A stretch of 64,000 nucleotides of DNA, taken from positions 21,204,001 through 21,268,000 of the forward strand of contig CAIIXF020000001.1 in assembly GCA_903813345.2 (NCBI GenBank), written 5' to 3'. A model generated the notes under the pieces. It had not been told where the DNA came from. It searched no databases and was given only the letters and a program-made list of their open reading frames with translations. Source of the stretch: Owenia fusiformis (taxonomy: Eukaryota). Shown here one piece after another: positions 16,736-42,816 of the stretch; position 1 is the first letter of the stretch, and each line of letters opens with the position of its first letter. Made by a program: the position numbers and the translations under genes.

Positions 16736-19013
16736 AGTCTATTAACACTCACTGTTCGTATTCATCAATAATTAAGGGCCTAAAATTAAACATCAAAAAT
16801 GGTTATTCATATCAAAAAATCAATATTTTTAAAATATTATTTGCACACTGTATATTTATAAAGGTTAGAATTAGACCAGACTTTGACTGAAGGGAATGCT
16901 ACATGTAATCAATGTATAGATGGCAATTATTTTTACACAAAAAACCTTTGAGAAACAATTATTTTTGAAATTTTCAATTTACAATATCTTATACAATGGG
17001 TAATGTTTTTGAGTAAAACAAAGGACCCTTAAAATAATTGAATCAAGAAATACAAATAAATATGAATATCTATACCTTTATATTAGAATGCTGAACCATG
17101 AATGTCCTGCATTGTATCTGAGCTAGCTTACTTTGCAACATATTCTGTAAGGAAAACATTGCCTTTAAATTACAGATAGTTATGAGGTTTTTAATGTTTG
17201 AGGGATTTGTAATATGAATTTTTTAAGCACAAATCTTCATTCATGTATTCACGTAAGCTGCACAAATTAACAAACTATTAAAATCATGCACTTGAATTTC
17301 AGGTTTATGGCTAATTGTACAAATGTTCAATCATTTTTAATAATATTATTCTTACATAACAATCTTCATCTTTACTTTACCACCTAGTTGGTATGTTCCA
17401 TAATTTTCAATTTATCTTATCCTCAGCCCTTCCCTATATTCACATACTAACAATAATGAAGATTTATTCAAGAGTTCATAAAAAACAATACATGTTAAAA
17501 TTGTAAAAATTACCTTTCTTGGAATCCATTTCTGTGTTGAGTAATTTAGTAATTAAGGTGGGGTTTCCAAGATGGCCTCAACTAAGGGACCATCTCAACA
17601 TTATCAAATCTGCAGTCGAGTTTAAAACTACATGTATCCAGATCACAATGTCTCTTAAAGTGGTAATCTAGTTTTCATATTAATCAAAACCCAATTTTCT
17701 CCTCAATTTTGGTTTTTCTACTTTTACTCAAAGAAAGTTTTAAAATTTTGCATTCCATTGGAATTTTCAATACTATAGATGAACTTATGAATAATTCATC
17801 CACAATCACTTATTAATATAAGAGTATATTTAGTACATGTACTAGTAATTGGTAATTGAAGTGTAGACCTAATATTTTGACAGCCAAAATTGTTTGTGTA
17901 ATTAGGGGCACAAGGTGACAGCTTGATTATTCATGTTTTATTTCTGACCAAATAGACTGATACAAAAATGAATGAATGAATAGTCCATTCACATCCATGT
18001 ACTTGTAATTAGAAATGAGATATTGAAATACAATATTACATGACAGGGGTGACTTATTATCTAAGCTGTATTTTTCTAAATTAAATAAGAAATTAAATCA
18101 TGTTCTTATTTATTTGATTTCTTTCAAAAATGAGGGGTAAATAAGCTACTTACATGGAGGAATTGGATATATTGGTTTTATCAACATCGGAGGGATAATA
18201 TGATTATCTAATCGAGGGTTCTGATTGATACACTTATACAAGTTATAAGTATGAGTAACATAAAACAATTAGAAAACAAAAGGCTTTCAGTTCAGATATT
18301 CAAAGAAATTCCTGCACAATTGAAATGCAAATCTTAAGAGTCGCAGCTGTCACTAGAAGTGTGCTATATCAAAAAATGAAACAGGGGTTACTGTAACCTA
18401 TAAACTTGTTTACTTACTTTAAACATGTTGAACATGAGTTTGTATAATCATGGAATTTTGTCATGTAACAAATAAATCAAGAATGAAAGAATAGATTCCA
18501 AGTTGCTAAATATATGAGGCTTGTTCAATAAAACAGTACAAATGTTTTCCATGTAGAATTCTCATCAATTGAAGTCAATAGTATGTATGTCTAAATATTG
18601 AAAAGATATTATGAGGTGAGTATTTGTACTTTAATGAAGGTCAAATCTCAAATCTAAAGTCAGATTTGGACTTTTGATAACTTGTAACTTGATAAATTGG
18701 GTCAATTTGAAGCAAGTTGAAAAAATACATATTTGACCTTTTTTAACTTATTTTGACCTGAATAAGTAATTGAAGGTCAAATTTTGAAAAATATTGAAGT
18801 CAGTCTAAACAGTATGTGTTAAGTTATTGGAAGTTGTAAGAATTTGTTACAGACGCCAACTGCCGATCGCCAACAGCCGATCGTCAACCGCCGCCACAAA
18901 AAACAACATGTCGCCACTTTTTGGTGGTGACATAAAAACTAGAGTTATTTAGGATCAGAATAACAAACACTGCCATTTCAATTTACATGTAACAATAAAA
19001 TTACAACAAACAA

Positions 19014-20572: not shown

Positions 20573-23500
20573 TCATTGCTCCTCATCCTCGTCATTGTTT
20601 GCTGTCTCAGTGATAGGTCTGAAGTTGAGAGTCCCACTTCCTCTATCTGGATCTGGCATCCTGAATATCCTTAGCTCTGGACATACTTTTAACTTACTGA
20701 AAACATGATATGTACATGTTTATAAATATATTTTAATCTACATATGAAGCATCAATTAAGTTCTAGCCTTAATCCAAAACATGAATATATATGTATATAG
20801 ATAGCCTTAAGGAGTGTCAATAGATGGCGAGAAATTCAATCAGTGGGTTGGCTTGTTAAGTTAACCATGTAAAATTACTTCAATAATTTTTGTTTGTGTG
20901 TTTTCTCGAGATATTTTACTTTAGTGCCTGAAATTAAACCTGGACACATGATTGGTCTATAAATTAAAAATATGTCAAAGTGTTTCTAAATGTACAGACA
21001 AATTGTCCAATTGTTCAAGTTAATAAATGTATGGACAAAGCCAGGTACAATGAAGGACCCACGGTCCTGTGCTCACACAGTTTGGAACCTTCAGAGGAAT
21101 GTATATCCTGACTTTCAAACAAAAATATTGATTTGGATTTGTAGTCTCGAACTTTGAGAAACTTAAATAGCACAGTTGTGTGACCTAGTTTGATGACCTT
21201 TGACCTTGAAAATTTTACTTAGTCAGAGCTCAGTAAGGTCTTTTGTGATTAAGCTGACCAAAATTTACATCCAAAAATCAATTTGAAAAATCAACTTTTT
21301 TGACCTTTCGAAGGTCACTGAAGGTCAACTAAAGGTCAAATCCTAAAACTAATGTCAGATTTGAACTCCTGGCAACTTGTAGATGTAAATCATTGCAAGA
21401 AATGATCAAGTATAAGGCAAACTTTGAGAAACTTGTCAATTACAAAACCTGCCATTGACTTTATACATGAGAAGTTTCCTGAAAATGACCAAGTCCTACT
21501 TTTTGTCAAATTTTATGGAGTAAACACCAAAAACTGTAATTCCAAGAGCTTTGAAATCTTCAGAGGACATAAGTTGCATATACAGCAACTACAAAAAGTT
21601 ATTTGAAAGTTCTACTTCAACAAAGTGTCTAGTATTTACAGAAAATTTGACTTTTTGACGTCAAAATCCGCAATTTCTCGGAAACCGGGCGAACTTGGGA
21701 AATGGCGATGATAGGTCAAATAGGCATTATGGATATGCATAAAATGAATGTGGCTATGACTCAATCCGAATAGCAGTTTTAATTTGTGCGGCCAATGTTG
21801 ACGGACGGACCAACGGACGGACGGAAGGACGGACGGACCAACGGACGGACGCCTGGTCGATCCCATAGGCTCACTGTGTGAGCCAATAAAAGCTTATTTC
21901 ATGCACTGGACCACGACTGAGCGCATTTCATACCTCATGTCCTGAGGGGTGAGAAAGATAAACTGTTTATCCAAGTTCTGTTTTGCCATTCCCAACATCA
22001 TATTCATAGAGATCTGTCTGTTAATTGCATCCTGAAATAAATACATACATACTGTATAGAGGTTTCAATCAGTCTTTTGTCTAGCATACATCTAGCAGTA
22101 ATAAAATTTACAACTTAAACGAGACCTGATCAGATCTTTGTTCTAGTCTGCCCTTGCATCTATAAAGATATCAAGTATGTTGAACTGATCAGCGATTTTC
22201 CCCAGAATTTTGATGACAAGATTAAGCTTAAGGAGGCGCCCAAATGCCGACCAACCCAGACACACTAGATGACAAAAATTTAGTGAGATAAAAACCAATT
22301 TCAGTCTAATTGCAAACGTATTGGTACAATCACACAAATTTCTAGTAATGTAAAGTTCAACTTACCATGAAAACGTCAAACTCGTCAAGACACCTGAATG
22401 GAGACTCCATAGCCTGCCAGAGACTCAACATAAAACACACTGTAGAGAAACTCCTTTCTCCTCCAGACAGTTCCTTGGTGTCTTTTACCTCAGAGAGCGC
22501 TCGTTGTTGTTCTCCTGCCCTCGATGCAGGCTGTACCTAGAATAATACCATACAGACATATTAATGCAATGATCATACAAGGGTGTCTCTAAAAATGGAG
22601 TCTTATCACATCTTTTTCTATTTTATAAAACCAACTTTAAGTTTGTATGTTAAATAATCTTATCCCATCTGATTGTTGTGCTTTTTGAGCTAGAAGCAAA
22701 AAATGAGTTCAGACTTGAGGGAAATGCATCAACACTTGAAACATTTCAACTTTATGAACATACTTAGATAATATTGACTCAGGGGTAAGGTTTATTGCTC
22801 TGAAGATTTTAGGTCCCTACTATGGATCATAAAATAGAATATGAAAAAGTATGTGATAAGATCCATTTTCTCTTTTTCATATGTTGAATACCATTTATAA
22901 TGAAAACTGATAATTCAACCATGTGATATTGAAATGTTTTCAGACGTTATGATACTGAATAAGAAAAGCTTTGAAATATAATTGAATAATAATTTATTAT
23001 TATCTTCATTTATAGGTTAGGTTCAATTATCATAATATTTAAAAAATTGACAATTCTTAGCTAGTACAGGGTGTACTAAAAAGGCTATTAGGTTGACTGT
23101 TCAAAATCACATCAAGACCTTCATATGACAAGTGCAAGTTTGTCTGCAGAGATGGTAGCCATTTGGACCTTGTTCCTTAAATGGCCAGGAAATAGGCCAT
23201 ACACATCCTAAAGTGATGAAACTTTGTCAACTTATAGAACATTGAACTAACTTTAACTATGCCAAAAAGATCAGTCAACTCTGTTGTTTAAAAAGATATG
23301 CATTGTTAGTTTGGTTGCACTTTTTGGTACACTCTGTACATACTACATAGCATACATGGAACAATACACATGCATATTTAAAAGTTTTATTCAATGGTAT
23401 TACACTAATCTAGCTAAAGCATTCTCCCAAATGAATTGCAGCTTGTCAGCTTATATGAGAAAATTATCCCATTAAAATATAGCAAGTGGTTTTTGAAGGG

Positions 23501-26500
23501 TTTTCATGCAATCTAAAACGGAAGTGACAAAACTTGTGCAGCTGTCTGGAAGAACATATTATTTCTGTTGTGACTTTCTTTGTATAAATCAACAATAGGT
23601 TAACATAGAAATGTATAAACTAACATGCAAATGAACAGACTTATTATAAATCATGCCTAAAAATCAACAACAAACCAATATAAACATAAATTGCATTACA
23701 ATGAGTGTCGGCTAAAAAGGTGCTGAACTACATATTATATGAAACACATTAACAGACACACAGGCAAACACACTTGAGTACAGGGTGTCAAATAAGTCTG
23801 TTCTCCCCCCTTAACTTTTTTAATTTAGAAATAACATAGAGTTGGTATATATCATCTTCAAGGGAATTTAATTTGCTGATCACACACCAAATTACAGAGT
23901 GATTGGTTAAATTCTAATATTTTTGGAGTATTTTTAGTGATGTCCATATTTCACTTTTTAATAGTCTGTATGTCTCCCCCAGCAGTCCGGATTGCCTCAA
24001 TTCTACGAAGATATGATCCTGTATAAATCATTCAGAACGTTTAATTTTGGCTGTAATCAACTATTTTGTGATGAAAGATGCCCCTGCTTCAAAAGCTCCC
24101 CTGAATGAAACACATTTTACTCTGTAACGATATTGAGAAACATCGAAATCACCCAATGTTGGCATTGTCACTGCAGTATCAAAATTTCATTTTCATTCAC
24201 TATACCTTGTAATTTTACTTGTTTTGACGTAATCAAAGGTCAACTAGAACCTTACAAGAAACATTGTAGCAATTTTATTAGGAGAAGTTTATGATTGATT
24301 TTTTGAGGGTGATCAGCATTTTCCATAAGCTTCAAAATGATATATGGGAAAGTATGATCAATTTAAAGATAAAAAAGTTAAGGGGGGAGAACAGACTTAT
24401 TTGACACCCTGTATAACAACATCAACAAGAGATCTGAGAGGAAAGCAACTTAAGGTTATATATGTGGAAGAGATATAACAGATAACTATGAACAAATGAA
24501 GTTAGGAAATCTTATTTGAAGTAAATGTGTGGATGACATTAAAAGGAGACACTGCGTTTATCGATGAAAAGGAATAAAAAATTTCGAAACACATCACTCA
24601 CAGTCAAGTGAATACTACAAAAAACTTCTGAAGTAGAAAACAGCATGAGAAGAAATCGGTTATGACACATGCACTGTTTACCCTGCAAAGGTGTTTTTAA
24701 ATTACTTTTGAACGAATAGATGGCATATTGGTTAACTCTTAATAAGGCAGTATGAATGATCTATATAGGAATTTAGGACATGATAAACATTTTCGATAAC
24801 AATTTTACAGAATAGAGAAAATTTTTTGACTTTAATATAATTGAAATTTTAATATGGCCTGTTTGAGGTGTTTTTGGTGCCAAACCAAAGTTTGAATACT
24901 ATCAACCCATTTCAAATACCAGGACGACGAAAAGTTTTTATTTAACTAATGAACACTGAAAAGTATGCAAAGCCTCCCTTTAATCATCAACAGGAAAGAA
25001 GCAGGTTGATTAAAGGTAAAATTCAAACAGGAATAATTCACTTCAACATCACAGACTTACATGCATTACTATCATCTCTTTACGATGATCAAAGCGTAAT
25101 TTTCCAGCGAATTCACGTTCTTGGAGATACTGGTTGAAGCTATATTTAGTTCTAAGTGCAATAAACTGGCGAAACTCATTGTAATGCGCCTTTCTGTTCA
25201 TCATCAATTTGTCAAGCTTCTGTAACATATAACATAAAATAGGTTTAACATATAATAAGGAGATGTAAGAAGGATGAAGATGTGATGGGACAGTCACAAT
25301 AGACAGTGATCTCCCCAACAACAGGGGGTAATACTCCCTTCAGAAATTTTGAAAATTAAATGGCACCATATTGAAAATCTGTCTGCACACTTTCAAAAGC
25401 ATTAAATATTGAGATATTCTGAAGATAATGCTTCCTTTTAAGAATAAATAAAAAAAAAGATATTTGAGATATTTCGACGAGATTAGGATAATGCATCCTT
25501 TTGAGAAGAAATACCTGGGAAGATCACTGATGTGTGTTAGTAAATAAAGTACAAGAGTATAATGCGTACCAATACATAAAAGGCATACAGAAGCAAAGCA
25601 CAAATAAAAATGGTACTTGGTAGAAAACATGTAAAAAACAATCACATAAAAAAACTAAAAAAACTAACCAAACATTTCCGTTTTTTGAAATTGCTATTAG
25701 TTATGTGAAATATCAATTCTGATGCTCAATTAGAGCTTGAATTAGTATACTGAAAGAAATAAAAAAAAAAAAAAAAAAATGCAAAGATTCGAAATTCAAA
25801 ATGGAGGATTTAGAGTGTTTGAGCAAGCCACAAATGTTCAAATGGAAAAAATGTGATATTCTTAGTTATGAAATCCATTGAATTTATAATTGGAAAAGCT
25901 TTAATTCCATTCTAGTTTATGATTCTTGAATTCTGATTGGCCCATATGGAGTGACAAGGATGCGATACAACATTATATGAGAGACTAAGAGAACAGAACA
26001 GAATGAGTGTGAAATACACTATCAAGAAGCGAGACAGAAGCATAAATTAAACTCTCCATGCAATTTTACACTGAGTTGTCCATTATTGCTTGCTTACTAT
26101 AACATCAAGACTTTTGCCTTTGTGGGTAAACTTGAGTTTTCCTGAATAGCCATTAACAATACAACGACAACTGAAAAATTGTGATGTGCGATATGCCATG
26201 CTCAGGAGAATTCTGTTGTACATTCTGCCTCTCTTCTTCATAGCCATGTCCAATGCCTGAAAATAATTATCTGGCTACAATGTAATAGTTACTTGGATTA
26301 TTATGAAGAAACGTGGGTTTCCTACAAGAGCATATAGCACAAGCATAAAGTGTGTAATTATACACACGCAAAATGAGAATTGTTCAGATATTTCAAGCGT
26401 CTTTGGGTAAAAGAGCAGAACATTTTACATGTAGGGTTGCAAATAACAAAGGTCATATGGAAACAGGTCACAAAGTAAACCCTGCCTTATATCAAAGTTT

Positions 26501-29500
26501 ATACCCTGTAATTAGAAAAAATAATCAAATTGTGCTTTATAAAGCAATTCTCCTGTGTTGTGTGTCAATGTGTTAACCTATAGGCTACTCAATCATAAGT
26601 ATGATCCAACAGATTATAGCCCTACATTTTACACTATGTGCATCTCTTTTATTTTTCTTTGTTGGTATAATGTGTCACATGGTATAACATGTACTTTAAT
26701 CTCTAGGATACTACCCAGACTATATTCCAAACTATAGCCTTACAATGTGAACAATGTCTAAGGACTGTTTTTTGTGGTCAAATCTCATCTTGTATTTTTT
26801 CTGGTGTGTATTGTCAAGTTGCATTGCTATGTATGAAACTTTAATTCTGTACACTATAGACCTCCTAAAATCCAAGTACCGCTCCGTTCTCAGTGCCAAA
26901 CTGTCGTCCACTGCCTAAATAACAAGTTTAACATACAAATGCATTCATAAATGTGACCTTTTTGACCTTAAAACTTTCAATTATATTTACACAAATTATT
27001 TAATAGAGACCAGATTTTGATGATTACCTACATAAAGAAAATGTGTCATACTTACATGTACAGTAGTTACATATTTAACATTAACAAAATCATTCTATTA
27101 TTTTGAAGTTATCAATTTACTAAACAAATAAAAACATGCTTAAAATTGAATGTCTTCGAGTCTACAGTATCTGATAATTACTTATAAAGTTTCTTGTCAA
27201 ATTATTGCTTTATTACAACGAGTTCCACAAGTTATCACTGACTATATGTTGCTATGGTAACAGATATTGCCAATAATCTGTTCACTCTTGAGACAACATG
27301 TTTATGTGTGTTTCAAGTCAATCTTAAGTTTACTTCTCTAAATTATTGCAAATTACAAAAGTGTAACAATTGTTACAGATGCCAACACAGAATTCTGGTC
27401 ACTTAACAGTTGGAGGCTATAATAATATAATGTAACAATGTAATATGGTGTGATTCTTCAAGAAAAATAGAACTCAATTTGAAATCAATTTAAATACAGT
27501 TTAACATTTCAAAAAGCTTGAAGTAAAAGAGATTGCAATAACTCACCTTTAGGAAATTTTCCTGTTGCTCCACTTCAAGCCTAATCCGTTCTAACGACTG
27601 TTTCTTCTCATGGTACGCTCTTGTTATTTCATCATAGCTTCCTTTGCTGGAATACATGAGACTTTTGTTAAAACAATTCTTAATAGACGTTTCCGATAAA
27701 TCGTGCATCTTTTGATCCATCAGGGAAACTATAACTTATTGGTTTGATTGATGATGTCATTGGCTGTAGGTAGCAAACTGCCCATTCGAAAATGGTATTA
27801 ACTTTTTGCTAATTTTATAAAAGTACAACCTATGACATCATCAATCTAGCCAATATATTGTGGTTTCTCTGATGGATCAAAAGATGGCACGATTTATCGG
27901 AAACGTCTATTTTTATTATGGAGAGAGGGTAACAGGGGCTTTAGACAAGAAAAAGACAAGGTATTAACCAGCAAAATGTCACCACCTGACAATTGTTACA
28001 TATGCTATATGTTACAGACGCCGAAATGTCATCCACAAAAAAGTTGGAGACTACTTCTGGTGGTGACATAATTCTACTGATATACTGAATATAGTTAGAT
28101 ACCAATAGATAGTAATCCATTTTGACAAATACAATGGCCTGAACACAAAGAATGCAGCAACAAAAATGATTATTTCTTCAATTTCAGTCAAACCCACAAA
28201 ATATGTACAGAAGTTACATCCTTATTGTTGAGACATCCATAGACAACTATTAAAATGCATATACAGTATATATCAAATCTCATAGCACTAATCAATCTTA
28301 ATGTTTTGTGAAGCCACTGCCCCCTCACTTAAACGTGCTTCTTTAAAACAGTTACAGACATCAAACTGAATGCCAGTCACAAAAACAGCCGCAAAAACAG
28401 ACAAATTATCAATACCTCTTGGGGCCTGTTCTAAGGGTATTGGTACTCGTTTTGAAGGCTTATATTTTACAATATTAACTTGAGCAATATGGGACATCAT
28501 AGTGATGAGCTAAGTGTCAGGCCATAATGGATATTTCTGCCTGGTAATGTTTCAGGGGAAATGAGATATTATTCAGTGTGTATGATTTTCGTTCAGTTCT
28601 CGCTATTTCAGCCCAAGGCATAAACAGAGCTAATATACTAATAATCCCATTTCAGCGGGCGACATAGTGAAACCTTGAACCTCTTGACTTTGGCCCTTAG
28701 TCCAAGATCTCACTATGTAGCTCTTTAAAATGATATTCCATATTGGTATTATTACCAACATTTATCTCAAGGGCTGAAATCTTGGCGTTTTCATAATACC
28801 TTCTCTCCTCCAAAGCAATCCTTCTCTCTATCTGACTAATCTCACTCTGTATATTCTGTGGTTTACGCTTAACCCTCACCTCTTCACTGACCTGCCTAGC
28901 CTTTGCCTCACTCTCCTAAAACATACATGTTAAACACAACATTTACAATTCTCGGTCTGTATATTCTGTGGTTTACGCTTAACCCTCACCTCTTCACTGA
29001 CCTGCCTTGCCTTTGCCTCACTCTCCTAAAATATACATGTTAAACACAACATTTACATTTCTCACTCAGTATATTCTGTGGTTTACGCTTAACCCTCACC
29101 TCTTCACTGACCTGCCTTGCCTTTGCCTCACTCTCCTAAAACATACATGTTAAACACAACATTTACAATTCTCGGTCTGTATATTCTGTGGTTTACGCTT
29201 AACCCTCACCTCTTCACTGACCTGCCTTGCCTTTGCCTCACTCTCCTAAAACATACATGTTAAACACAACATTTACATTTCTCACTCAGTATATTCTGTG
29301 GTTTACGCTTAACCCTCACCTCTTCACTGACCTGCCTTGCCTTTGCCTCACTCTCCTAAAACATACATGTTAAACACAACATTTACAATTCTCGGTCTGT
29401 ATATTCTGTGGTTTACGCTTAACCCTCACCTCTTCACTGACCTGCCTTGCCTTTGCCTCACTCTCCTAAAACATACATGTTAAACACAACATTTACATTT

Positions 29501-32500
29501 CTCACTCTGTATATTCTGTGGTTTACGCTTAACCCTCACCTCTTCACTGACCTGCCTTGCCTTTGCCTCACTCTCCTAAAACATACATGTTAAGCACAAC
29601 ATTTACATTTCTCACTCTGTATATTCTGTGGTTTACGCTTAACCCTCACCTCTTCACTGACCTGCCTTGCCTTTGCCTCACTCTCCTAAAACATACATGT
29701 TAAACACAACATTTACATTTCTCACTCTGTATATTCTGTGGTTTACGCTTAACCCTCACCTCTTCACTGACCTGCCTTGCCTCACTCTCCTAAAACATAC
29801 ATGTTAAAAATAAACCTTTACATTTCTATTTTCCCTACCAATTTCTTGAATTACACTTGGGATATGTTAATAAGCTATACAGATGAACACAATGTTTTCA
29901 AAATCAATCATATTCTTCAAATCCTGAAATTATTTTCCTAAAATATTGATTTTAAAGAAGACCCTTTAAGATTACTTATTTTATATGATTCTTTGCAGTG
30001 ATCTATAATATTTATTTCATCATTTAAAACAATGATTAAATTAAATAGTTAATATGAGTAACGACATGTCAACTGAAATCCGAAGATTATGGTGCTGGGG
30101 AATTCAACAACTTTTAAGGAAGTGGAAAATTGGGTCTTGACCTCGGAAGCTCCAATTCAAATAAGAAGTGAAGTTATTTTTCATACTCCAAGAAAGCCTA
30201 CTGAATACATGCACAAATCTTTTCTCAAGAATATTATAGGAATATAGGAAAACTCATCGATCTATGTATATTTTATGGATACAATTCCAAGATTTCAAAC
30301 AGTTTCTCATTCTTAAAATTTTCACCAAAAATTCCTGGCATTTTTGACCAAGAAATGTCTCACCCAACTTAAAAGAAATCTGACCACTTTTATGATAAAG
30401 ATAAAGTAGTTGTGTTACCTCTACGTGTTTCTTGTGGGCATCATACTCGGCAAGACAATCTTTGATCTTGGCCTGATGCTCCTTCAGCTTGCCTTCATAA
30501 TGCTTCTTATCATGTTTAGCCTTCTCTTTGTTAGCACTAGCAGTATCATGGTCTTCCTGAAATAACAAATATTAAACTTTTGGGTAATCTTGGGTCAATC
30601 TCTTGTCAATTTTATAAATAAGGGAAATTCAAGAATTTTGCATGACAATTTGGATATCAAAATATTGATGAAGTTGATGCAAAGAATCGGGAGATCAATT
30701 CAATATATTCCTCTCTCCCACTGCTGCTTCTGCCTTTACATAATTCTAAGCTTGCACACAAACATTTTTCAAGAATTCAGTCTTAATCTAAAGTTAAGTT
30801 TAACATTAGATCAATTGTACAAACCTTTAGTTTTTCAACTTTTGTGTGGATCTCAGTGATCTTATCATTTATTGCTTGAAAACGTTGCTCTGCTTCTCTG
30901 CGCACTTTGTCTGTGGCGAGCTTCCTCTCATTTGCAGCTTCCAGTAGTTCCTGAAGCTCTGCCATTTTATTCTTGTATCTAGCTACATCCTCTTGCTGTA
31001 ACATGCACACAGCTTTGAAATTTCACCAAGTTTTGAGATTTGCATGTAATGATTATCAATGACTTTAATGTTCTCCCTATTAGAGAACATGTTTCAATAA
31101 TGTACCCAGTTTTTACATGTACTCGAAGAACTTTGATCTACAGATATTTTGTTACATGAGATTCTGCATGACTTAACTTTTTAAGCAATTTGAAAAATGT
31201 AAATAAATTATCATCCCATTAGAATCCTTTAGAAAACATGCTGCAATGTGTTTTTAGAAAGAATAATATATTTTCAGCATCCTCACCAGCACAAAAACAT
31301 CTTCTGGCTCTGGGTCTTCTTGCAACTCAAGCTCTTCTTTCTCCTAAAAAAACAAATGATAAATCAACACACATTTTACCCATTAACAAATATTTGCTAA
31401 TAAGAGTAGAATAACAAAGGTCTATCCATCAACGAACAACTATACATGGACAACTTACTGCTTGAATTTTCTGCAGCTGGTCCCTGATTTTCATAATTTC
31501 TGTCTCACTACGTCGTTTTTCCTTTTCTTGGTTATTCATCTGAACTGTCAGATTTCTGTTTTCTTGGTTAAGCTGCTTCATCTCCTGAGTGTTAACTTCC
31601 AATTCTTGCTTTGTTTCTCTAAAATAATGAGTGAACAGATTAATGTTGGCTTCAAATAAAATGTCAAAATGGTAATGGCCTTAAATATTGTGTTGGGGAT
31701 GGTGTCAAGATGTGTCCAGATGAGTTTTGAAAAAAAAAATTAGTCTCATGGTTTAAACTCGGGGTGGGTCGGGTCATAATTGTATGTTGATATTAGATAG
31801 GTTTAGATGTAAACTATTTCCCATAGTAAAATACTGTACTGTGACATCTGTTTCCAACTGAGTAATTGATTAAGTCAATGACATGGTACATTGCAGCCTG
31901 GTCCGAGGATCCCGACCCATCCCTAGTTTAAACCCCCAGCCCCACATAATGAAATCTGAAAATGTTGACTTGAAAATCAACATTTCTACTTGCAATAACA
32001 AGATTTACCCCTTCATCTAACAAAATTAACTTTGCTTTTCCACAACTGCCCTTAATATGGATATGCATAATGAAAATAGAAATGAAGAAGGTTGTCTTTG
32101 TCCCATTCAATATAAAATGTACAGACATGTACATGTAATAACTAACCTGATTTCATCTTCCACACTGGCTTTTAAGTATTTTGAATTTTTCTGATCGGAG
32201 GAGTAGTAACGGAATGAAGGTTTGGAGAGGACTTGATCTCCTTCTATGGTAAATACCTATAATATATACAAGAACACAAATGTGTACAAAATGTCCCCAC
32301 CAATGGGTGATCCCGTCATAATGGTTATCCTAAAAATGAGTAGACAAGACTTTACCAACACAATTTGAGGATGGAAAATCCAAAATGGCCACCTTAAAAT
32401 TTACCCAGAATGCCAAAAATTTAGTCAGTTCTAGATTTTCATACTAAGAAGCACCCCTGAAAATTTGAAATTGATCCGTCACACAGTTAACCAGAAAAAA

Positions 32501-35500
32501 TGTAAGCAAGACTTTACAGACAAGATTTTAGGATGAAAATCCAAAATGGCTGCCTTGACATTTACCCAAAATGTCAAAAAACTAATATGTTTCTAGATTT
32601 TCATACTAAGAATTATCCCTGAAAATATGAAATTGATCTACTGAACGGTTCACCTGAAAATGCGTAGACAAGACTTTACAGAGAAGATTTTAGGACAGAA
32701 AATCCAAAATGGCTGCCTTGATATTTTACGCAGAATGCAAAAAAAACTAATCAGATGTAGATTTTCATACTAAGAATCATCCCTGAAAATTTGAAATTGA
32801 TCTACCACACGGTTCACCTGTAAACGTGTAGACAAGACTTTACAGACAAGATTTTAGGACGGAAAATCCAAATTGGCTGCCTTGGCATTTACCCAGAATG
32901 CCAAAAAAACTAATCTGATCTAAATTTTTATACTAAGAATCATCCCTGAAAATTTGAAATTGATCCACCAAACGGTTCACCTGAAAACGTGCAGACAAGA
33001 CTTCACAGACAAGATTTTAGGATGGAAAAATCCAAAATGGCCGACAATAAAAAAGTGATTATAAGTTTTTGCTTATTTCTTTTTACAAAATCATCACATA
33101 TACCTACTGTTAACAATAACATAGAGTTTTACAAGAAAGTACATCTGAAATTATTTATAGAGCTACTAAATAGTTAAAGTATGAAAATCAAAAACACCAT
33201 TCAATATAATACAAAGTATTATCGCGCGCTAACTTTTCTTAAGACATTCAAAATGGCTGCCATGACTGAGCTAATAGGTTCAAAACCTATTCAGATCTAG
33301 AATGAAGTGAGCTGAACAAGATGTTAAAGTTTTAAAAGCAACTGTGAAGCCGTTTTTCTTAAAGTTTGCAGACAAGGATTTTAGCATTTGACTTCAAAAT
33401 GGCCGACAGGAAGTAGGTTTCGAGTTAAATTTTTTTCATCCATATCTGTATGCACTCATAAGTTATCAATGAAAATTTGAAGGTGATAACTGTAGCGGTT
33501 GTGGAGAAAACTCCCGGACGTACGTACGGACAGATGAACGGACGGACGCACCTAGGCCGACAATATGGCCCCACACTATGTGGTGGGGACATAACAAAAC
33601 AGAATATCGCACCCGATGAGCAATACTTCATAAGTGGGATTTAATCCAACTGGTTAATTTGCTGATTGGTCAAATTTTATCATTTTCCAAATTTTAATTT
33701 TCTTAATGATAAGAAACTTCCGTTTTGATAACATTTTGAAGATAATATGACAACTCACCTCCTTGCAGTTGTGTGGGGGATTGTACATCATTGTTTTCCT
33801 AGCAATCTCACTGCTGGGTATGATCATCACACACTCAATGGTACGCTAAAAATCAATTTTTTTATTGATATTTTTAACTTCTAAACAAAGCATTAATGTG
33901 CAAAATGTCACAACCTGCCATTTGTTACAGATGGCAAACACCTACCACCATCACAAAAAAGTTGGAGACTATATCAATGTTACCACTTGTGGTGGTGACA
34001 TAATAAAAACATAATGAAAGAGAAATTCTTCAGCGGTGGCAGCAATTTTTCGATAATCATTACTCAGTACACCTGAGGAATGTCCAGTCAGATTCAAAAT
34101 TTCTTTCTTAACCTAAGGAAATGTTAAAAGTATTGGTGTAGATTGGAGTGTAACTGTTTCCTAGGAATTTATTGTTCTTCAAGGGGTTATTTCATTGTAT
34201 CTTTTGTAGCTCACGCTAACAATTTCCCTCCACTGCCCTCCTTTTATTATCTCTCATATGGCTTACTCTTTTCAATTGCGCAAATCTCAATACGTGTTAG
34301 AAATCATTCTTACTTGATCAATGAGTGTGTTAATGATGACAGGGTCCTCTATCTCTAGGACATCTAGCACCGTATCGTACTGATCATGACGGGCTCGCTG
34401 AAACAATGAAACATCTTCAACTGTGAGTTGCATTGTAAATATGATTCATAATATTCAATGGACATTCAAGGTATCTCCATTATTACATATCTACGAGGGG
34501 TGACCAATAAGGAATGGACGCTTTTTTACACAGATACTTTTTATCGACCAATCCCTTTGATTTTCTTACCAGTGATACATCATTCAATCATCTATCAATT
34601 CTTAAGATTTGAAGACAAAATATGTAATACATGTTGATATATCCTTATTTCCGTGAAGGAGGTACAGGTATCCCGGGACTGACATTTACGTCACAAATTT
34701 ATTTTATAGCCAGTCTGGCATATTTCAGTTAGATTTGAACTTTTTGATATGCAACAAGTGTTGTGTTGTTTGAAATATTTTGCTGACTGATAACACATAA
34801 ACGGTGATGTCAACGTGTTGTATGGTTGGTGTTTGCAGTTAAATTTGAGAAAACATTGTGGAAGGAGGGGTTGGTGACAGAAGGGAGCACCCTACTCCAT
34901 AATGCACCTGTCAAAAGATTCAAAATGTCCAGAATACAATATCCCTGGACCTCAACTGAGCCCTTGGAGGGGCCCTTGGCCAATGCACCATTTTGTCCAG
35001 ATCTGCCCACATGTGACTTATTCATTTCTATACTTGTACATGTATTACTAATTTCTATAGAAAGGACACAGGTTTAATGACATTGATGAAATAAAACAAG
35101 CTGTGCCACTGCATCTTGCTTCCACGTCAGAGAATGGATTCGGTCTTGTCTCACAATCTTGGATTAAAAGGATGAGGAAGTGTGTTCCTATTGATGGAAC
35201 CTATGCAGAGGGCCCTGTAGAATGAATGTGGCATGAATAGAATACCACATAGTGATGATGAAATATTCAAAATCAAGTATGGCATATCAAAATGGCGTAA
35301 TTCATGATCATCATGGTTAGTTTTGTTCAGCCTGCATTCAATTGCATTGCTTGTTAAACAAGCTAAAATAGCTTCATAATGTGTGACATTATGTCAGCCC
35401 CAGGGTACCTATACCTCCTTCACGGAAATAAAGATATTACATGTTTTGCTTTCAAATCATCGGAATTGATAGATAATTGAATGATGTATCACTGGTGAGA

Positions 35501-38500
35501 AAATCAAAAGGATTGGTCTATAAAAAACATCTGTGTAAAAAAGTGTCCATTACTTATTGATCACCCCTCGTAGATGTGACAACCATCAAAAATCAAAAAT
35601 GATAGAGATTTACAAATTTTCGAAGACAGTTTACCCAAAGAAGATTCAGAAATAAATAGACTTGTAAATCTCTATCATTTTTGATGTTTTTAACACTTAT
35701 TAACATACATTCGAGCCACTAAAAATAAATTGAGAATTGTTTTAGTTTGTTAACTGACTGTTTGTTAACTATACCTATGTGTATTCTGACTGTAACATGC
35801 TCTTCAATTTTCAAGATCAACATCATTGCTTAACTTACATTTTGTGAGACGTCATAGACATTCTGTTTAAATGCCCCTACAATGGTAGTTGGTGTCTGTC
35901 CTGGTGGGCAAGCACGCTTGAATATTCCTTCAAGGACTTGGTTATCATGGTGATCATGTACACAGAAGGACTTCATAAGGTTTTTTAAGCAGCACTCTAT
36001 TGCCAGTGCATAGTCTTGGTTCCTCAATTGCATACAAGCACCTACATATATTGAACACATGTTAATGCTGAACCAGAACAACGGCAACGCCAAAGCGTAG
36101 CGAATCCCATCAAACAGAAATGGCTGGCATTTTTACAAACGAATAGCAAATATCATAAAACAACACACCAGAAAGGCCACCATTTTCAAAATGGTTGCTC
36201 ATTAGCGAAGTTGTCACCAGAAGAAATAATGTGCTTTTAAGTAGCCACCTCTAAAATTTTTGAAAAATCGCACACGTACTTGTAAAATAACACACATAAA
36301 AATGGTGGCCATTTTTCAAAATGGCCCACTACTCCCCAAAGTTTTATTAGACAATGTGCCATGCTTAAAGTATTCACATATCAAATATGAACAAAATCGC
36401 TCCACTACTTTTCGAGTTATAGTAAAATACGTTAAAATGGCGGCCATTTTTCAAAATGGCCACTGTCTACCAAAAGTGTCATTAGATATAGACAGCGTGC
36501 CATGCTTATAGTATTCACATACCAAATATGAACAAAATCACTCCACTACTTTTCGAGTTATAGTAAAATACATTAAAATGGTGGCCATTTTTCAAATTTT
36601 TTTTCAAAATGGCCGCCTTTTACCAAAAGTGTCATAGGACAGTATGCCATGCTTATAGTATTCACATACCAAATATGAACAAAATCGCTCCACTACTTTT
36701 CGAGTTATAGCAAAATACATTAAAATGGCGGCCATTTTTCAAAATTTTTTTCAAAATGGCCGCCTTCTACCAAAAGTATCTTTAGACAGTGTGCAATGCT
36801 TATAGTATTCACATACCAAATATGAACAAAATCGCTCCACTATTTTTTGAGTTATAGCAAAAATCGTAAAATGACGAGTAAAGGCCGCCATTTTCAAGAT
36901 GGCTGCCATGTGCTTCTTTAATATCTACATTTGTAGCATTATTAATGTCCTTTATAATTCTTTTACATTTAAAACATATTGCTATTACAGTTTTACATAT
37001 TACACCTAAATTACTGTAAAATCGGCACTAAAATGGCCGCCATTTTGAAATGAGTGGCCATTTTGAAAATCTGCTTTCGAGCAGAACTTCTACCCCAATA
37101 GGGTATATGTGTACAAAATATGAACAAAATCGGGCCAACGGTATTTGAGTTATTGCCCGGACGGACGGACAGACGGACGGACGGACGGACGGACGTACGT
37201 ACGGACGTACGGACGGACGGACGGAGGCGTTCCCTATATCCCTCCGAACTTCGTTCGATGGGATAATAAATACAGTAGAAACTGCTAAGTGGAACACCTA
37301 TGTAAAAGGAACATGTTATTTAAAGTCCTGCAGTCAACGGACTCCATGTTAATGAACCTATGTAACATGTGATTTATGGAGCAAAAGCTGGCCACTGTTT
37401 TTTTCTTTCTGAAATAATGAGGTAGTTGACAAAGGGCAAAATAAAATAAAACCTCTATTTGATCAAACATTTGTCATATATCATAAATTGAGCAACAAAA
37501 TTCATATGAGACCAGAAACTGCAGCATGTCGATACTTGTAAGGTTAGATCCCCACTTGGGTGAACTGACTTTTCACATCAGCCCTAAGCACAGGATTTCA
37601 TTCTGTGTTTTCTTTAACTAATGATTTGAATTTACAGATAAATTCACAATTTATTCAAAACTATCATTTTTCACCCAATTGAGAAAAAATCTTAAAGAGC
37701 GCACTCTTCCAGGTGAGGTCTTACCCAATGGACCAATTGGCTTCTTGTGAAATCTGCCCTGTTGGTGTGCCTGGTTTATAAGATTCTGCAAGTCTGGCAT
37801 CCAGGTTCCAAATCTCTTCAATCTGTCTTTACTAGAAGCCTCAAGGTCCTTCAAGAATCGCTTCTTTTGTTCTATATTATTCTGCAGGTCTCGCTCCTGG
37901 CGTCTGGAATATTTAAATCGAATGACAAACTATTACAAACCATCACCCACAGATTGAGGAAAGTTATAAAACACAAGAACCCCAGAAAGCTGAAATAGTA
38001 TCACTGACCCGCCTAAAACCCAGGCCACACTCCAAATTATAACAAGATTTTTATCGATGCAATAATAGAGATTTATATAACAATAATTCTTACTAAAAAA
38101 ACTTTGATTTGCCAGATACCAGTCTACCTACTTTTTGCCATAAGATTCCTCTTTATATCTGGTAATTGCCCCAAGATATTGTCTGACTTCATGTTCCTTT
38201 GTGGATTTCTGAGCTTCCAGTATTGCCATCTGTCCCGTTAGTTCTTCGATCTTTCTCTCCCTTACTGCCTTCTCGGTGTTGATATCACTGACACTGGAAA
38301 ATACATACATATACATACAATACAGGTTACATATGATCAATGTTAATTAATCATTGGTGTGAATTCATTCTTTTCCATGACTGAATGCATGATAAGAATG
38401 ATTGAATAGTGTAAATCCTACTAATAATTGGTATGAATCCTTACCTTGATTGAATGGTGTGAATCCTTATTATGAGTGGATGGTGTGAATCATTACATTG

Positions 38501-41500
38501 ACTAAATGGTGTAAATCCTGATCCTGATCGAATAGTGTAAATCCTTTCCTTGATTGAATAGCGTGGATCTTTACCAAATTGTGTAAGTCCATAAATCCTT
38601 GCTCAAATGGTGTGAATTAGTGTGAATCATTACATTAACTGAATGGTTACCCTGACTGAATGGTGTGGATCCTTACCTTGATTGAAGGGTGTGGATTCTA
38701 TCAAGAGTTTCCTGTAGATCCCGCCCAACAGTTGTGATTTTACTTTGCAGCTTTTTTGGTTCGTACTGAAAGGTCAGTGCAAAATCAAAATAGATAATAT
38801 ATGGGCACAGTGACAATATGAACCAAATAAACAGAGAAACAGTACTTTTCAGCTTGGCTGTTGATTTTAAATGATCCTTACATTAGGCCTAATATACTGA
38901 ACTGACACATGACAATAGGCACACAAATGACTTAGAGACATAACACTGTCCACAAAATGCCACAATGTGTGCTCTGTATGCTCATATAGCAATTTGTTTC
39001 CACCAAACATTCTCATGGAATTGGAACATTAATTTGATATCCTATTAAAGCCATATATGAAAGCAATATCCCTAAATGTAGATATCTTACATTGACTGCC
39101 TGGCAAGCTTTCTTAGCTTCCTTCAGCTCAGCATTTGCTCTATCATGCTCCGGTTTATACTCCGTAACTTCTCCACTGATTGCCTGAAGCTGTTCAGTTA
39201 TTTCTTTGTAGCATGTGCTATGTTCATCAACAACTTCCTAAAAAACATTGATTTTGCTATATTACATCAACTTGAGAAGTGTTTTGTAAAAGTGTGATTT
39301 CAAATGATCGATCCACATTTTTGTTGTAGCTCAACTAAAGAATTTATTTAATAGGTATGAAAGTATATGCAAGGTGCATATTTTGCAAGTTTCAACTTTC
39401 AAGGAAGTGATCATTTTTGACAAAGGAATGATTAACAAATAATTTGATTGGTACTTAGCTCATTTTAAAATTTTCCAAACATTTTAGGCTGAACTTACAT
39501 TAAACTGAAACAAAAATTAAACAATAAACCTGTGCTTTCTGGACTGCAGCCACAAACTTTGGCAGTCTTGCTTCTGCAGTCTTGTGCTCTTTCTCTTTGA
39601 TATCTCGGACCTGAAAGGTTAATTACAATTTTTATTTAATGTACGGAATCTTCTTTCTTTGTGCCAACTAACTTGGGGATGGTATCAAAATGTCAACAAA
39701 TGTGAAAGAATAAACTCCATTTAATTAGGGAGGGGGGATAGATGAGAATTTTATTTTTAAAGAAGTTGATTTTTAAAAAACAAAACTGAGTCCAAAATTT
39801 AACTTTAAGCTTTAAGGGGGCAGGGGGATCAAACCAGAATTAAATTAACTCTGTTTTTCCACAACTCTATCAACATCACTTACAATATTTGAATAGTTTC
39901 ACAATTCTGTAAGTATACTTCAAAATTCTATATATAGTATACGTAGTACTTTAATTATAAACTTATCTTGTTTTGAACCATATTATGGTTTCTTGAAAAC
40001 AAGATAGTGTCCAATATGCTTTTCTTAATAAAATTCTTTTCTTGTCTCTCATGTACTGCAATACTCTTCCCATAGATTAACTTCACGTAAAATGCTTGTT
40101 TACACACCTCTCGCTTCTCATTCACCATAGCCCAAGCCAATTGATTGTGCAGTCCCTCAATTTTCTTCTTCATTCCAGTAAGAGCTTCACAGGCGTCGTA
40201 TCTCTCCTTGCATTTGCTCAGTTCATCCTCCAGCTGAGGCAAGGACTGACAACATAGCAACAACAATTATGAATGTAATGACTGGAGTCCATATTCAATG
40301 TACAGTATTAGCAATCTTAAATAACAAAAAGACAAAATCCCTCCCAATAAATTTTGTATGTACCCTATGTACTTGGTAATGAGGTTAAAATTAACAAATA
40401 ATTACAGAGACTTTTGTATTTGATCATCATGATTTAGTCTCAACAACTAGAATTGCCATGGTTTGTTTGCCATAGTGCAATGCACAAGAAACTTGATAAT
40501 ATTTCAACATTAACACAAGGCATCAACATGCAAGATGTCACCATCTGCCATTTTTTACAGACACCGATGAACACCAAACTTTGAACACTGTTGGAGACCT
40601 TGACTATAACATTAAAATAATTCCAGCTGTCCTTTCAGCTGTTTCTTACCTTCTTCTTGGACTCAACTATATTCTGGGATATACTTTTAAGTTCGTTGGC
40701 ACTGGCATAGTCATACTTCATCTGTTCTAGCTGAGTGGCACGTAGGAAAAACTAAAAGAAGTACATGTATGTTAACATGTGAGTGGTTACAGGGTGCGAC
40801 ATTAATATTGACCGATAGCATAATGTTTAGTGAATTTTCCCCGCACCAGCTGATAATTAGCAAGTGTAGGGAAATAAAATAACAATGTTATGCAGCTCTG
40901 ACCACACCCTGTTGGTGATATTTTGTATATATGGAAATTATTAGATAGACATCTCTCCCAACATTGCGATGCAATACAATATACAAAACTTTTATCAAGT
41001 GAATGTAATTCAATTTTAAAACATAAATGTTTTGTACTTACCTTATACTTGTCATTTGGGGATTTTGAGTTGAGGAAGTTTCTACTTGTGTCCTGGTTTA
41101 AAATGGCTACAGGATTCTCTACTTGAATATTGAATTGATCAAGAATCCTTGTCAACTCCTCTCGTTTCTTGGACACCTCTTTGCCTGAAATGAAACATGA
41201 TTAGCATGATTAAGTATATGATATACCCTGAGCTCAAAGAATAGTTCACAACCTTCTTATTAGGTGTGATCATTTAAAAATTGCATTTTGTGTTAAAACA
41301 TTTGTTTTCTGTCAATTGGACAATATTGACTTTGAATAATTACCTGACTTAGATTTAAGACTGTAACTGCTCCCGCCACTTGCTTGTATTGTCCGCTCTA
41401 CAATAATGGAGTCTCCATAGGCCTCATGTTTGTAGGCATCTGGCCCTTTATGGTTTCTCAGTGTCACTCTCACTTGTGCTGATCTACAAATATAAGCAAA

Positions 41501-42816
41501 ATAAATTAAATCTTTCTGTTATGCAATGAGTAAGAAGTGTATTTATCATCTCGGTCTTTTCCCCCGCATTTTCCTCAAATGCGGGCAAATTGCAAGTTCC
41601 CACAATTCTAATCAAAATTGGTCCAAAATATGCCAAGATGACAGCTTCTTTTTATCACTACTCAAATTTTAATAGGTGGGAAAATTCTCTTTGAGGTTTG
41701 AATAATTTTCCCTTTTCAATGAATGCAAATGTATTATTAAAAGAGAGATAATTCAACGCCAAGTTACATTCCTTGATGCAGATTGAATTTGAAATGTTGA
41801 AATAACAATGCTATACTTACGATTTGCCATTCTTGATGAAGTTCTTGATGGATGAGCCTCTGTTGGTTGCTGATGATTTGGCACCAAGGCCAACAACTAA
41901 TCCTGAGAGAATTGCACTCTTCCCACCTACAAGAGCAATAAAACATACTAGATTACTCCACAGTTGAATGCCATGTGACAAATTACCCTAACAATAATCC
42001 AGTCCAAATAAAAAGGGTAAGATCATTAGGTTTATTTGATATAACCATAAGATTAGTACATGATACTCTGTTTAATTCATAAGTGTCACTGCTAGTAAAA
42101 TTGGTTTCAGGAAGATCTTCCTGAATATTAACAGCACAAGTCTGACGAAGCACTGAGAATATTCACAGGCAAGTCTGACCAAGCAATGAGAATATTTACA
42201 GCACAAGACTGACCAAGCACTGAGAATATTTACAGCACAAGTCTGACCAAGCACTGAGAATATTTACAGCGCAAGTCTAACCAAGCACTCAGAATATTTA
42301 AAGCACAAGTCTGACCGAGCACTGAGCATATTTACAGCACAAGTCTAACCAAGCACTTCGAATATTAACAGTACAAATCTAAAATAAAGTACTTACTTCC
42401 ATTTCTTCCAATGACAAAGTTCACTTGCGGACCAAACGTGAAATCCAGCTTTGTGTGACACATGAAATTCTTCAGAGATATATTCTCTACTATCCCATAC
42501 TCAGCCTCGTTCTAAAAGCATACATTTTACTTCATTTACAGTAACAGTACCATTTAAACTGTCAATCCATCAACAATGTTTGGACAAATGAAAACACAAT
42601 TGGTCTCAGCTCCTACTTTTGCTTCGTTTTCGAGGAATTTTGCACCCACTTTTTGGAAAAATCCAGAGACAGACAACTTACTTGCTTCGTTGTGCTGACA
42701 ATGTCACTACTTTGTGACAGGTTGTTGTCATCATCTTCACTATCAGATTGAAGCTCAGGTTTAGCTTTCTTGGAACCAGATGGTCCAGCATCTTGACCAT
42801 TCGATTTGCGTTTCAT
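20573..42816 (-). CDS. SMC6: Structural maintenance of chromosomes protein 6 (SMC5/6 complex), complete, ~1104 aa, 26 coding exons
   Basis: Exons, all GT-AG and phase-consistent: 42682-42816, 42397-42511, 41821-41926, 41344-41483, 41042-41184, 40650-40751, 40108-40245, 39530-39610, 39091-39237, 38677-38765, 38132-38293, 37725-37903, 35839-36041, 34314-34397, 33759-33845, 32147-32256, 31459-31618, 31287-31343, 30825-30995, 30419-30556, 28800-28915, 27547-27646, [one of 26744-26914 / 26098-26256 / 25061-25219], 22366-22536, 21934-22031, 20573-20696. Motifs: LKNFMCH, Walker [30 protein letters not shown], hinge PIGPLG, signature [13 protein letters not shown], Walker [21 protein letters not shown]. 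Confidence 0.96.
21035..21890 (+). mobile_element. HINE/Helentron-like element
   Basis: TGACCTT/AAGGTCA-rich core, (GGAC)n microsatellite at 21800-21850, terminal hairpin GGCTCAC...GTGAGCC. Confidence 0.6.
23067..23336. mobile_element. Tc1/mariner-type MITE
   Basis: TA|CAGGGTGTACTAAAAAG...CTTTTTGGTACACTCTG|TA. Confidence 0.65.
23781..24411. mobile_element. Tc1/mariner-type MITE
   Basis: TA TSD; TIR CAGGGTGTCAAATAAGTCTGTTCTCCCCCCTTAACTTTTTT at both ends. Confidence 0.85.
25061..25219 (-). CDS. SMC6: SMC6 exon 23c (canonical-looking variant), [53 protein letters not shown]
   Basis: 159 nt, ttacAG / GTAAGT, phase 0/0, open. Best resembles the vertebrate SMC6 segment before VQP...LSGGE (recalled, not aligned). 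Confidence 0.92.
26098..26256 (-). CDS. SMC6: SMC6 alternative exon 23b, [53 protein letters not shown]
   Basis: 159 nt, the same length as 23c, ttttcAG / GTAAGC, phase 0/0, open. Shares LD..M..R...YN.......RT...F..........GKL.F.H with 23c, without gaps. Confidence 0.82.
26744..26914 (-). CDS. SMC6: SMC6 alternative exon 23a, [57 protein letters not shown]
   Basis: 171 nt, atttAG / GTAAGG, phase 0/0, open. Shares D3, R9, Y13, FR, R23, K.RFDH.K and SLD with 23b/23c. Confidence 0.8.
27682..27911. mobile_element. Hairpin MITE just upstream of the SMC6 exon 22 acceptor
   Basis: ~80-bp inverted arms AATAGACGTTTCCGATAAATCGTGC / GCACGATTTATCGGAAACGTCTATT. Confidence 0.8.
28841..29825 (-). repeat. 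Nine-copy 110-bp tandem repeat made of the SMC6 exon 21 acceptor plus the first 75 nt of the exon
   Basis: Units start at 28841, 28951, 29061, 29171, 29281, 29391, 29501, 29611, 29721. They are near-identical, with two variants alternating in units 2-6; the last unit has a 6-bp deletion. Confidence 0.97.
32272..33598 (+). mobile_element. HINE/Helentron-like element with ~165-bp internal tandem repeats
   Basis: About 4.5 units (AGACAAGACTTTACAGACAAGATTTTAGG...AAAATGGC), an ACGG microsatellite, terminal hairpin CCCCAC...GTGGGG. Confidence 0.7.
34494..35570 (+). mobile_element. Mariner (Tc1/mariner) internal-deletion derivative in an SMC6 intron
   Basis: TA-flanked CGAGGGGTGA...TCACCCCTCG long TIRs. 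Transposase relics [18 protein letters not shown] (cf. YSPDLAPCDF) and [10 protein letters not shown]. Confidence 0.85.
36071..37269 (+). mobile_element. HINE/Helentron-like element with ~135-147-bp internal tandem repeats
   Basis: Tandem units, (GGAC)n/(GTAC)n at 37159-37225, terminal hairpin; near-identical flanks in the inverted copy at 49430-50082. Confidence 0.75.
38350..38700 (-). repeat. Degenerate ~26-bp minisatellite overlapping the SMC6 exon 10 donor
   Basis: Unit ~GAATGGTGTGAATCCTTACCTTGATT; the last unit is the real exon end and donor. Confidence 0.8.
42122..42380. repeat. 34-bp minisatellite (~7.5 copies) in SMC6 intron 2
   Basis: Unit GAGAATATTTACAGCACAAGTCTGACCAAGCACT. Confidence 0.9.

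Follow-up and report, generated by a model that had tools for sequence, protein, structure and literature searches.

Nine tandem copies of the intron 20/exon 21 boundary in the SMC6 gene of Owenia fusiformis and the use of the last acceptor

The SMC6 gene and its boundary array

The window is a stretch of 64,000 nucleotides of the Owenia fusiformis genome (contig CAIIXF020000001.1, assembly GCA_903813345.2) carrying on its minus strand a gene assigned by protein homology to SMC6, in which the boundary between intron 20 and exon 21 is present nine times in tandem. The public 1104-amino acid O. fusiformis protein P0001 maps exactly onto the window as 26 coding exons separated by 25 introns, the shortest of 115 nt, with a longest-match rule applied at the acceptors, and the part encoded by the real exon 21 is 100% identical to it. 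The best relative of P0001 with a solved structure is the SMC6 chain 9lwi_A (E 1.4e-230, residues 13-1099), other SMC6 chains following at about 1e-89 and the best SMC5 chain at 2.8e-22 in the N-terminal part only. A total of 1411 proteins from 8000 candidates scored match at E<=1e-10; of the 120 listed, the majority of those bearing a name are SMC6 or SMC6-like, and the median length of the 120 listed relatives is 1097 amino acids compared with 1104 for P0001. The motifs GRNGSGKS, LSGGERS and LDEFDVFMD are readable in the protein and are presumably the Walker A, signature and Walker B motifs of an ABC-type ATPase. Pfam comparison of single exons gives SMC_N and AAA_23 matches below threshold only, and the identity of the gene is therefore taken from the full-length protein.

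The boundary copies form a single tandem array, which at a score of 1806 is the top of the 25 rows returned by Tandem Repeats Finder for the whole window (period 110, 9.0 copies, 95% matches, 0% indels). An 18-nt word composed of the intron end and the start of exon 21 occurs in nine exact minus-strand copies, with 0 expected from 100 dinucleotide shuffles. The nine exon-start bases are located at 29789, 29685, 29575, 29465, 29355, 29245, 29135, 29025 and 28915, and the units are oriented head to tail. Each 110-bp unit is composed of 35 nt of intron tail, containing a branch-point-like TTTAAC, a short T-rich tract and the terminal AG (the tail ends in TTTTAG), followed by the first 75 nt of exon 21, and the intron-exon boundary spanning the splice site is present in every unit.

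Two donor-like sites are placed within the exonic part of units 2-9, CAG/GTCAGT after 24 nt and GAG/GTGAGG after 36 nt (the slash marks the potential splice point), with gaps of 86 and 74 nt, respectively, to the next acceptor. The 24- and 36-nt micro-exons that these sites delimit both preserve the reading frame. Unit 1 is without exactly 6 nt, which reduces the spacing to 104 and moves its donor-like sites to 18 and 30 nt. Reading through a unit leads to TAA after 31 codons in units 2-8 and after 29 codons in unit 1.

Much of this layout had been described in a first-pass annotation of the same DNA. The eight extra TTTTAG acceptors preceding the real one at 28915, the TAA met on read-through, the frame-preserving 36-nt micro-exon with its 74-nt intron, the one unit with a 6-nt loss and the numbering of exon 21 all agree with the word count, the unit sequences and the P0001 mapping, which gives 28915-28800 as the 21st of the 26 coding exons. 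The donor distances given there for every unit apply to units 2-9.

Splicing from exon 20 to exon 21

The sequencing-run listing contains 20 runs belonging to 7 studies, with no run recorded as RNA, and four of them (X1, X4, X6 and X12) were compared with the window as assembled contigs. Only X12 yielded a spliced contig, 602 nt in length with a word depth of 295, which joins 30418/19 to 28914/15 and skips 1503 nt, the CT..AC ends of the skipped segment on the plus strand corresponding to GT..AG on the minus strand. The contig runs unbroken across exon 21 and then into sequence reading as the start of exon 22, and its other loose end is assumed to be exon 19. An identical exon 20/21 junction is present in P0001. 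The O. fusiformis genome annotation drew on RNA-seq splice junctions, according to the portion of the genome paper cited here (PMC9977687). X4 and X6, although presumed RNA, yielded contigs that follow the intron sequence and were therefore treated as DNA-like.

Intron 20 contains all eight upstream units, and in the message exon 20 is spliced to the last acceptor. None of the eight upstream acceptor copies appears in the X12 spliced contig or in P0001. Because the contig is colinear through exon 21, the last acceptor is the one used and both internal donor-like sites are ignored there, in keeping with the caveat of the first-pass annotation that the internal donor must be passed over in the real exon. 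Assembled contigs drop rare variants, so that X12 shows the main form and minor isoforms could be missed. At the protein level, a search among fragments under 607 amino acids with P0001 residues 790-930 as the query gave 0 of 234 candidates with a micro-exon ladder or a truncation, in a collection with almost no fragments from this species.

The label of eight decoy 3' splice sites therefore suits the copies, which are located within the intron and are absent from the spliced contig and the public protein. The ladder of in-frame micro-exons varying coiled-coil length, offered in the same annotation, finds no support in X12, in which only the 30419->28915 junction is found; this is the refuting result it had named beforehand, seen here in one contig. 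Its proposal of exon or intron gain by tandem duplication divides in two, the tandem duplication being retained as the origin of the array and the gain finding no support, as X12 and P0001 contain only the ancestral junction.

Table 1. Coordinates of the SMC6 coding region, the boundary array and the minisatellites of other SMC6 introns (window positions)
Feature	Position	Strand	Basis or remark
Whole SMC6 coding region, 26 coding exons, 1104 amino acids	20573..42816	-	P0001 mapping and homology
SMC6 coding exon 20, 138 nt, donor GAG/GTAACA	30419..30556	-	P0001 mapping; X12 contig covers 30418-30558
Intron 20, 1503 nt, GT..AG, houses eight extra units	28916..30418	-	P0001 mapping; X12 contig skip
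Tandem array, 9 units of 110 bp	28840..29827	-	Repeat finding, word count, unit alignment
Unit 1, edge unit, 104 nt, 6-nt deletion	29721..29824	-	84-86% identical to others; original upstream intron context retained
Units 2-8, seven extra 110-nt units	28951..29720	-	Each with an acceptor copy and two donor-like sites
Unit 9, acceptor in use and first 75 nt of real exon 21	28841..28950	-	AG at 28917-28916
SMC6 coding exon 21, 116 nt, donor AAG/GTATTA	28800..28915	-	P0001 mapping; X12 colinear over 28800-28914
Unused internal donor-like sites in exon 21	GT at 28891 and 28879	-	
SMC6 coding exon 22	27547..27646	-	P0001 mapping; X12 loose end at 28800 matched by eye to exon 22 start
34-bp-period minisatellite, SMC6 intron 2	42123-42380		Starts ~16 nt past exon 2 donor, donor excluded
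26-bp-period minisatellite, SMC6 intron 10	38429-38575		
147-bp-period minisatellite, SMC6 intron 12	36447-36862		
163/327-bp-period minisatellite, SMC6 intron 15	32329-33042		

Origin of the array and related systems

The array is a minisatellite of the type known as a mirage, and most probably a tolerated and nearly neutral by-product of tandem duplication in which the extra acceptors are bypassed, not a device. The term mirage reportedly comes from Canestro et al. 2002 on Adh3. In the proposed origin a 110-bp segment over the intron 20/exon 21 boundary would have been duplicated in tandem, and the duplication junction contains three bases, AGA, that are common to intron and exon. Slippage or unequal exchange may then have amplified and homogenised the units to nine, the latest rounds probably proceeding in 220-bp steps of two units. 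The silence of the eight upstream copies would follow from exon definition, as only the last acceptor leads into the remainder of exon 21 and its authentic donor, and the donor-like sites 24 or 36 nt past the upstream acceptors would be too close for both exon ends to be occupied at once. Transcripts that did enter an upstream acceptor would meet TAA well upstream of later exon junctions and are expected to be removed by nonsense-mediated decay (NMD).

Units 2-9 share 95.5-100% mutual identity, and the edge unit 1 is 84-86% identical to them. Units 4 and 6 are identical, as are units 5 and 7, indicating a 220-bp higher-order repeat. Of two AGGCA direct repeats 6 nt apart, unit 1 has lost one, an arrangement that explains the deletion by slippage, so that its in-frame length needs no selection. 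Unit 9 has a synonymous difference of its own, GCT at exon position 18 in place of the GCA of all other units. Read in the former exon frame, two of the five substitution events in units 2-8 replace an amino acid (Q to L and S to T). Selection on the 36-nt part was considered and rejected; all five of these events fall outside it, but the chance of this is (74/110)^5, or ~0.14 by hand calculation.

A haplotype common to X12, X4 and X6 departs from the window at exon 21 positions 28817, 28829 and 28844, and also at nine flank positions within 28656-28776 and 30388-30397. The three exon 21 variants are all synonymous (I, I and S), like the private GCT of unit 9, whereas replacements occur among the unit substitutions, a contrast consistent with constraint confined to the real exon. 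At exon position 72 this haplotype has C, as do array units 4, 6 and 8, a hint that sequence was exchanged between the real exon and the units, or that the units derive from that allele. In run X1 a contig at a depth of 41 of ~74 has 40 nt of intron 20 replaced by 9 letters at 29974-30015, with two T>C differences nearby, a pattern suggestive of a heterozygous indel in the individual that probably supplied the DNA.

The SMC6 array belongs to the known mirage kind, a name so far applied only in amphioxus. Among the literature matches listed, judged by title and abstract, only the papers on an amphioxus globin and on lancelet PGBD5 concern such repeats. The account of published systems given here follows the portions of those papers that are cited. 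The mirage of the globin gene BflGb6 joins the 3' end of an intron to the 5' part of exon 2 in units of 150-160 bp, with haplotypes of 6 and 3 units. Its units are 81-100% identical, the inner ones being homogenised and the edges divergent, and reverse-transcription PCR (RT-PCR) gave regular splicing despite the AG/GT signals (Ebner et al. 2010, PMC3087553). The same source gives a range of 10 to 160 bp for published mirage units (PMC3087553). In the amphioxus mirages of Adh3, globin, troponin C and PGBD5 splice sites are duplicated and splicing is regular (PMC3087553; PMC3902484), and the portion of the second paper cited here describes the mirage arrangement of lancelet PGBD5, Adh and troponin C without aberrant mRNAs (PMC3902484). 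The SMC6 array resembles BflGb6 in its homogenised inner units, its divergent edge unit and the appearance of only the last acceptor in the RNA seen, and differs in having a 110-bp unit and 9 units. It also differs from the amphioxus cases in occurring in Annelida rather than Cephalochordata and in a different gene, and in offering pseudo-exons of 24 and 36 nt that keep the frame and end at strong donor-like sites.

Three other systems share part of this arrangement. In potato RNA-dependent RNA polymerase (RdRp) an intron was gained by tandem duplication over an intron-exon boundary (Ma, Lan and Niu 2016, PMC4974935), a type covered by the 'imprecise' form of the tandem genomic duplication model (Yenerall and Zhou 2012, PMC3443670). 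As in potato, the SMC6 duplicate crosses the boundary and brings a branch site, a pyrimidine tract and an acceptor, while the ex-exonic piece holds a donor. The potato case has a new intron in transcripts after one duplication, whereas no such splice is seen in SMC6 and there are eight extra copies. In the 37-bp variable number tandem repeat (VNTR) of human F7 intron 7, functional pseudo-donors identical to the authentic site stay silent (Borensztajn et al. 2006, PMC1557585). There too the terminal unit spans an exon-intron boundary and the chosen site is contiguous with the full exon, but in F7 the donors are repeated downstream and the first is chosen by 5'-3' scanning, whereas in SMC6 the acceptors are repeated upstream and the last is chosen. 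The AGGT tandem-duplication model of Rogers has been re-enacted for ATP2A1/2 (Hellsten et al. 2011, PMC3265369), and a duplication of this type has been inferred for Drosophila (Lehmann et al. 2010, PMC2891723). As in that model, the splice signals come ready-made from a short tandem duplication within the gene, and the extra copy ends up in the intron and leaves the protein unchanged. The Rogers duplicate is purely exonic and creates a new intron; in SMC6 an existing intron grew by ~880 nt with the intron count unchanged.

Splice-signal strength, rival explanations and neighbouring repeats

Several points weigh against reading the array as a silent by-product. The RNA evidence is one assembled contig from one run whose RNA status was guessed by a tool, and minor, stage-specific or NMD-cleared products would escape assembled contigs. 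Scored with weight matrices built from the 25 donors and 25 acceptors of SMC6 itself, the nine unit acceptors reach 6.8-9.6 compared with 7.7 for the real one and a leave-one-out median of 7.0 for the real acceptors of the gene, making the eight extra acceptors as good by sequence as the one in use. The internal donor-like sites GAG/GTGAGG (9.7) and CAG/GTCAGT (8.7) stand against a real-donor median of 8.8 (range 1.5-12.4) and outscore the authentic donors of exon 21 (4.4) and exon 20 (5.8). From these scores a view based on sequence would predict the use of both decoys and micro-exons. Purine content offers no simple enhancer explanation: the fraction is 0.73 in the duplicated and unique parts of exon 21 alike, and a purine-rich enhancer confined to the unique part was accordingly rejected. 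The steps of exon definition and NMD, in turn, draw on general knowledge of splicing.

The GAG/GTGAGG site is the strongest internal GT across all 26 exons, yet it is unused in the real exon 21. As a general rule, exon definition is poor when an exon measures just a few dozen nucleotides. Given the silence of the internal donors in the real exon 21 and the poor definition of tiny exons, the copies of these donors in the units are likely to be silent too.

Other potential splice sites are present at the locus. A further donor-like site, CAT/GTATGT (score 8.0), is located within the pyrimidine tract of each unit directly before the acceptor, 11 nt upstream of it (28926, 29036 and so on to 29800), and in unit 8 reads GTATAT with a score of 3.2. 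Upstream of the array an acceptor-like site, CTTTAAAATCAATATTTTAG/GAA, with 29937 on the minus strand as the first base after the AG, scores 11.2; it outscores every array acceptor and is likewise unused in the X12 RNA contig. Recursive splicing was considered and rejected, as exon 20 joined to a unit start gives GAG/GAGAGT, which has no GT and does not rebuild a 5' splice site. Open reading frames of 47-56 amino acids on the plus strand inside the array appear to be a side effect of the repeat and not a gene.

It is unlikely that the upstream acceptors act as active decoys, whereby a sizeable share of transcripts would use them, read into TAA and be destroyed, with the copy number setting the SMC6 dose. 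Such a role would agree with the close similarity of all nine acceptors in sequence and score, the earlier transcription of the upstream ones, the premature stop met on read-through and the fact that assembled contigs would not reveal unstable products. There is no direct evidence for it, however, and a large loss of output would be costly in SMC6, a single gene of the essential type. RT-PCR on amphioxus mirages, in the portions of the two papers cited, gave regular splicing (PMC3087553; PMC3902484).

A micro-exon ladder is judged most improbable. Some transcripts would enter an upstream acceptor and splice from GAG/GTGAGG (36 nt) or CAG/GTCAGT (24 nt) to the next acceptor, adding steps of 12 or 8 residues to the C-terminal arm helix of SMC6 as an exon and intron gain in progress. 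Both micro-exon lengths keep the frame, the two donors score close to or above the median of the 25 real donors of the gene, and a full acceptor with the branch-point-like TTTAAC is present in every unit. SMC arms are antiparallel coiled coils. From its place between hinge and head in the full-length alignment, the segment at the exon 20/21 junction would form part of the C-terminal arm helix. Twelve residues on one strand are not whole heptads, and a one-sided insert that is not a multiple of 7 residues would mismatch the helices of an antiparallel arm, which weighs against a functional ladder. The junction region is also without length change in evolution: in a comparison of P0001 with 15 orthologues chosen from the 120 listed relatives (molluscs, annelids, nemerteans, echinoderms, hemichordates, amphioxus and a cnidarian) no gap of more than 1 residue occurs around it. 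The ladder is seen neither in the single X12 spliced contig nor in P0001, none of the 234 protein-fragment candidates carries such a form and the real exon 21 passes over identical donors. The shortest of the 25 SMC6 introns measures 115 nt, more than the 74-nt intron that a ladder would require, and the 36-nt part of the units shows no significant sparing from substitution (~0.14 by chance). The published precedents favouring a ladder are potato RdRp, where the new intron took its donor from an ex-exonic segment (PMC4974935), and the proposal of Ebner et al. that mirage units could turn into exons and introns (PMC3087553), both as given in the portions cited.

A bolder form of this idea is a long shot. 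Successive 36-nt micro-exons of the array would be spliced into the message at a particular stage, in a particular tissue or in certain individuals, and the arm length of SMC6 would then depend on a minisatellite, growing by 12 residues per step. If true, this would show a mirage in transition to exons and introns. In a weaker form, the length of the array may tune SMC6 dose via unproductive splicing.

That the array or its copy number is an artefact of assembly is extremely improbable. None of the four runs has a contig spanning the array, the figure of nine copies comes from the assembly alone, and a mirage was aberrantly assembled in the amphioxus draft, according to the portion of Ebner et al. 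cited here (PMC3087553). Against this, contigs made of array units are present in X1, X4 and X6, which represent three studies, and contain the junction that only the duplication creates, as read from their coordinates relative to the unit boundaries. X4 and X6 moreover represent other haplotypes, as their nine flank differences from the window indicate. The depths of unit and flank contigs are 302 versus 33-83 in X1, 22-63 versus 9-11 in X4 and 6-51 versus 7-14 in X6, a hint only, as depth is not copy number and the lowest unit contig of X6 is no deeper than its flanks. The published O. fusiformis assembly was built from PacBio reads with an N50 of 25-30 kb, in the portion of the paper cited (PMC9977687), and such reads would easily span 1 kb if, as we infer, the window derives from that assembly.

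On the favoured reading of a bypassed, mirage-type minisatellite, the locus represents a natural competition experiment in which nine near-identical, complete 3' splice sites stand in a row and only the last is used in the message seen. It mirrors the donors of F7 intron 7, where only the first is used, and provides a compact substrate for setting exon definition against first-come or proximity rules. Mirage arrays also trap naive spliced aligners, and mapping with a first-matching-acceptor rule stopped inside the SMC6 array. The biology of SMC6 is unchanged unless minor isoforms turn up.

The whole window is rich in tandem arrays, as the 25 rows from Tandem Repeats Finder illustrate, and those placed in other SMC6 introns are included in Table 1. 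Several SMC6 introns contain open frames with abundant RTDG/GRTD repeats (21743-21945, 33462-33644 and 37011-37352), those at 37158-37225 coinciding with a (CGGA)n run. A second set of open frames, with MSPP and GGDI motifs, is found repeatedly, at 18809-18952, 23880-24027, 27850-28177, 33425-33640 and 33850-34112. Both sets of recurring frames look like copies of a dispersed repeat family.

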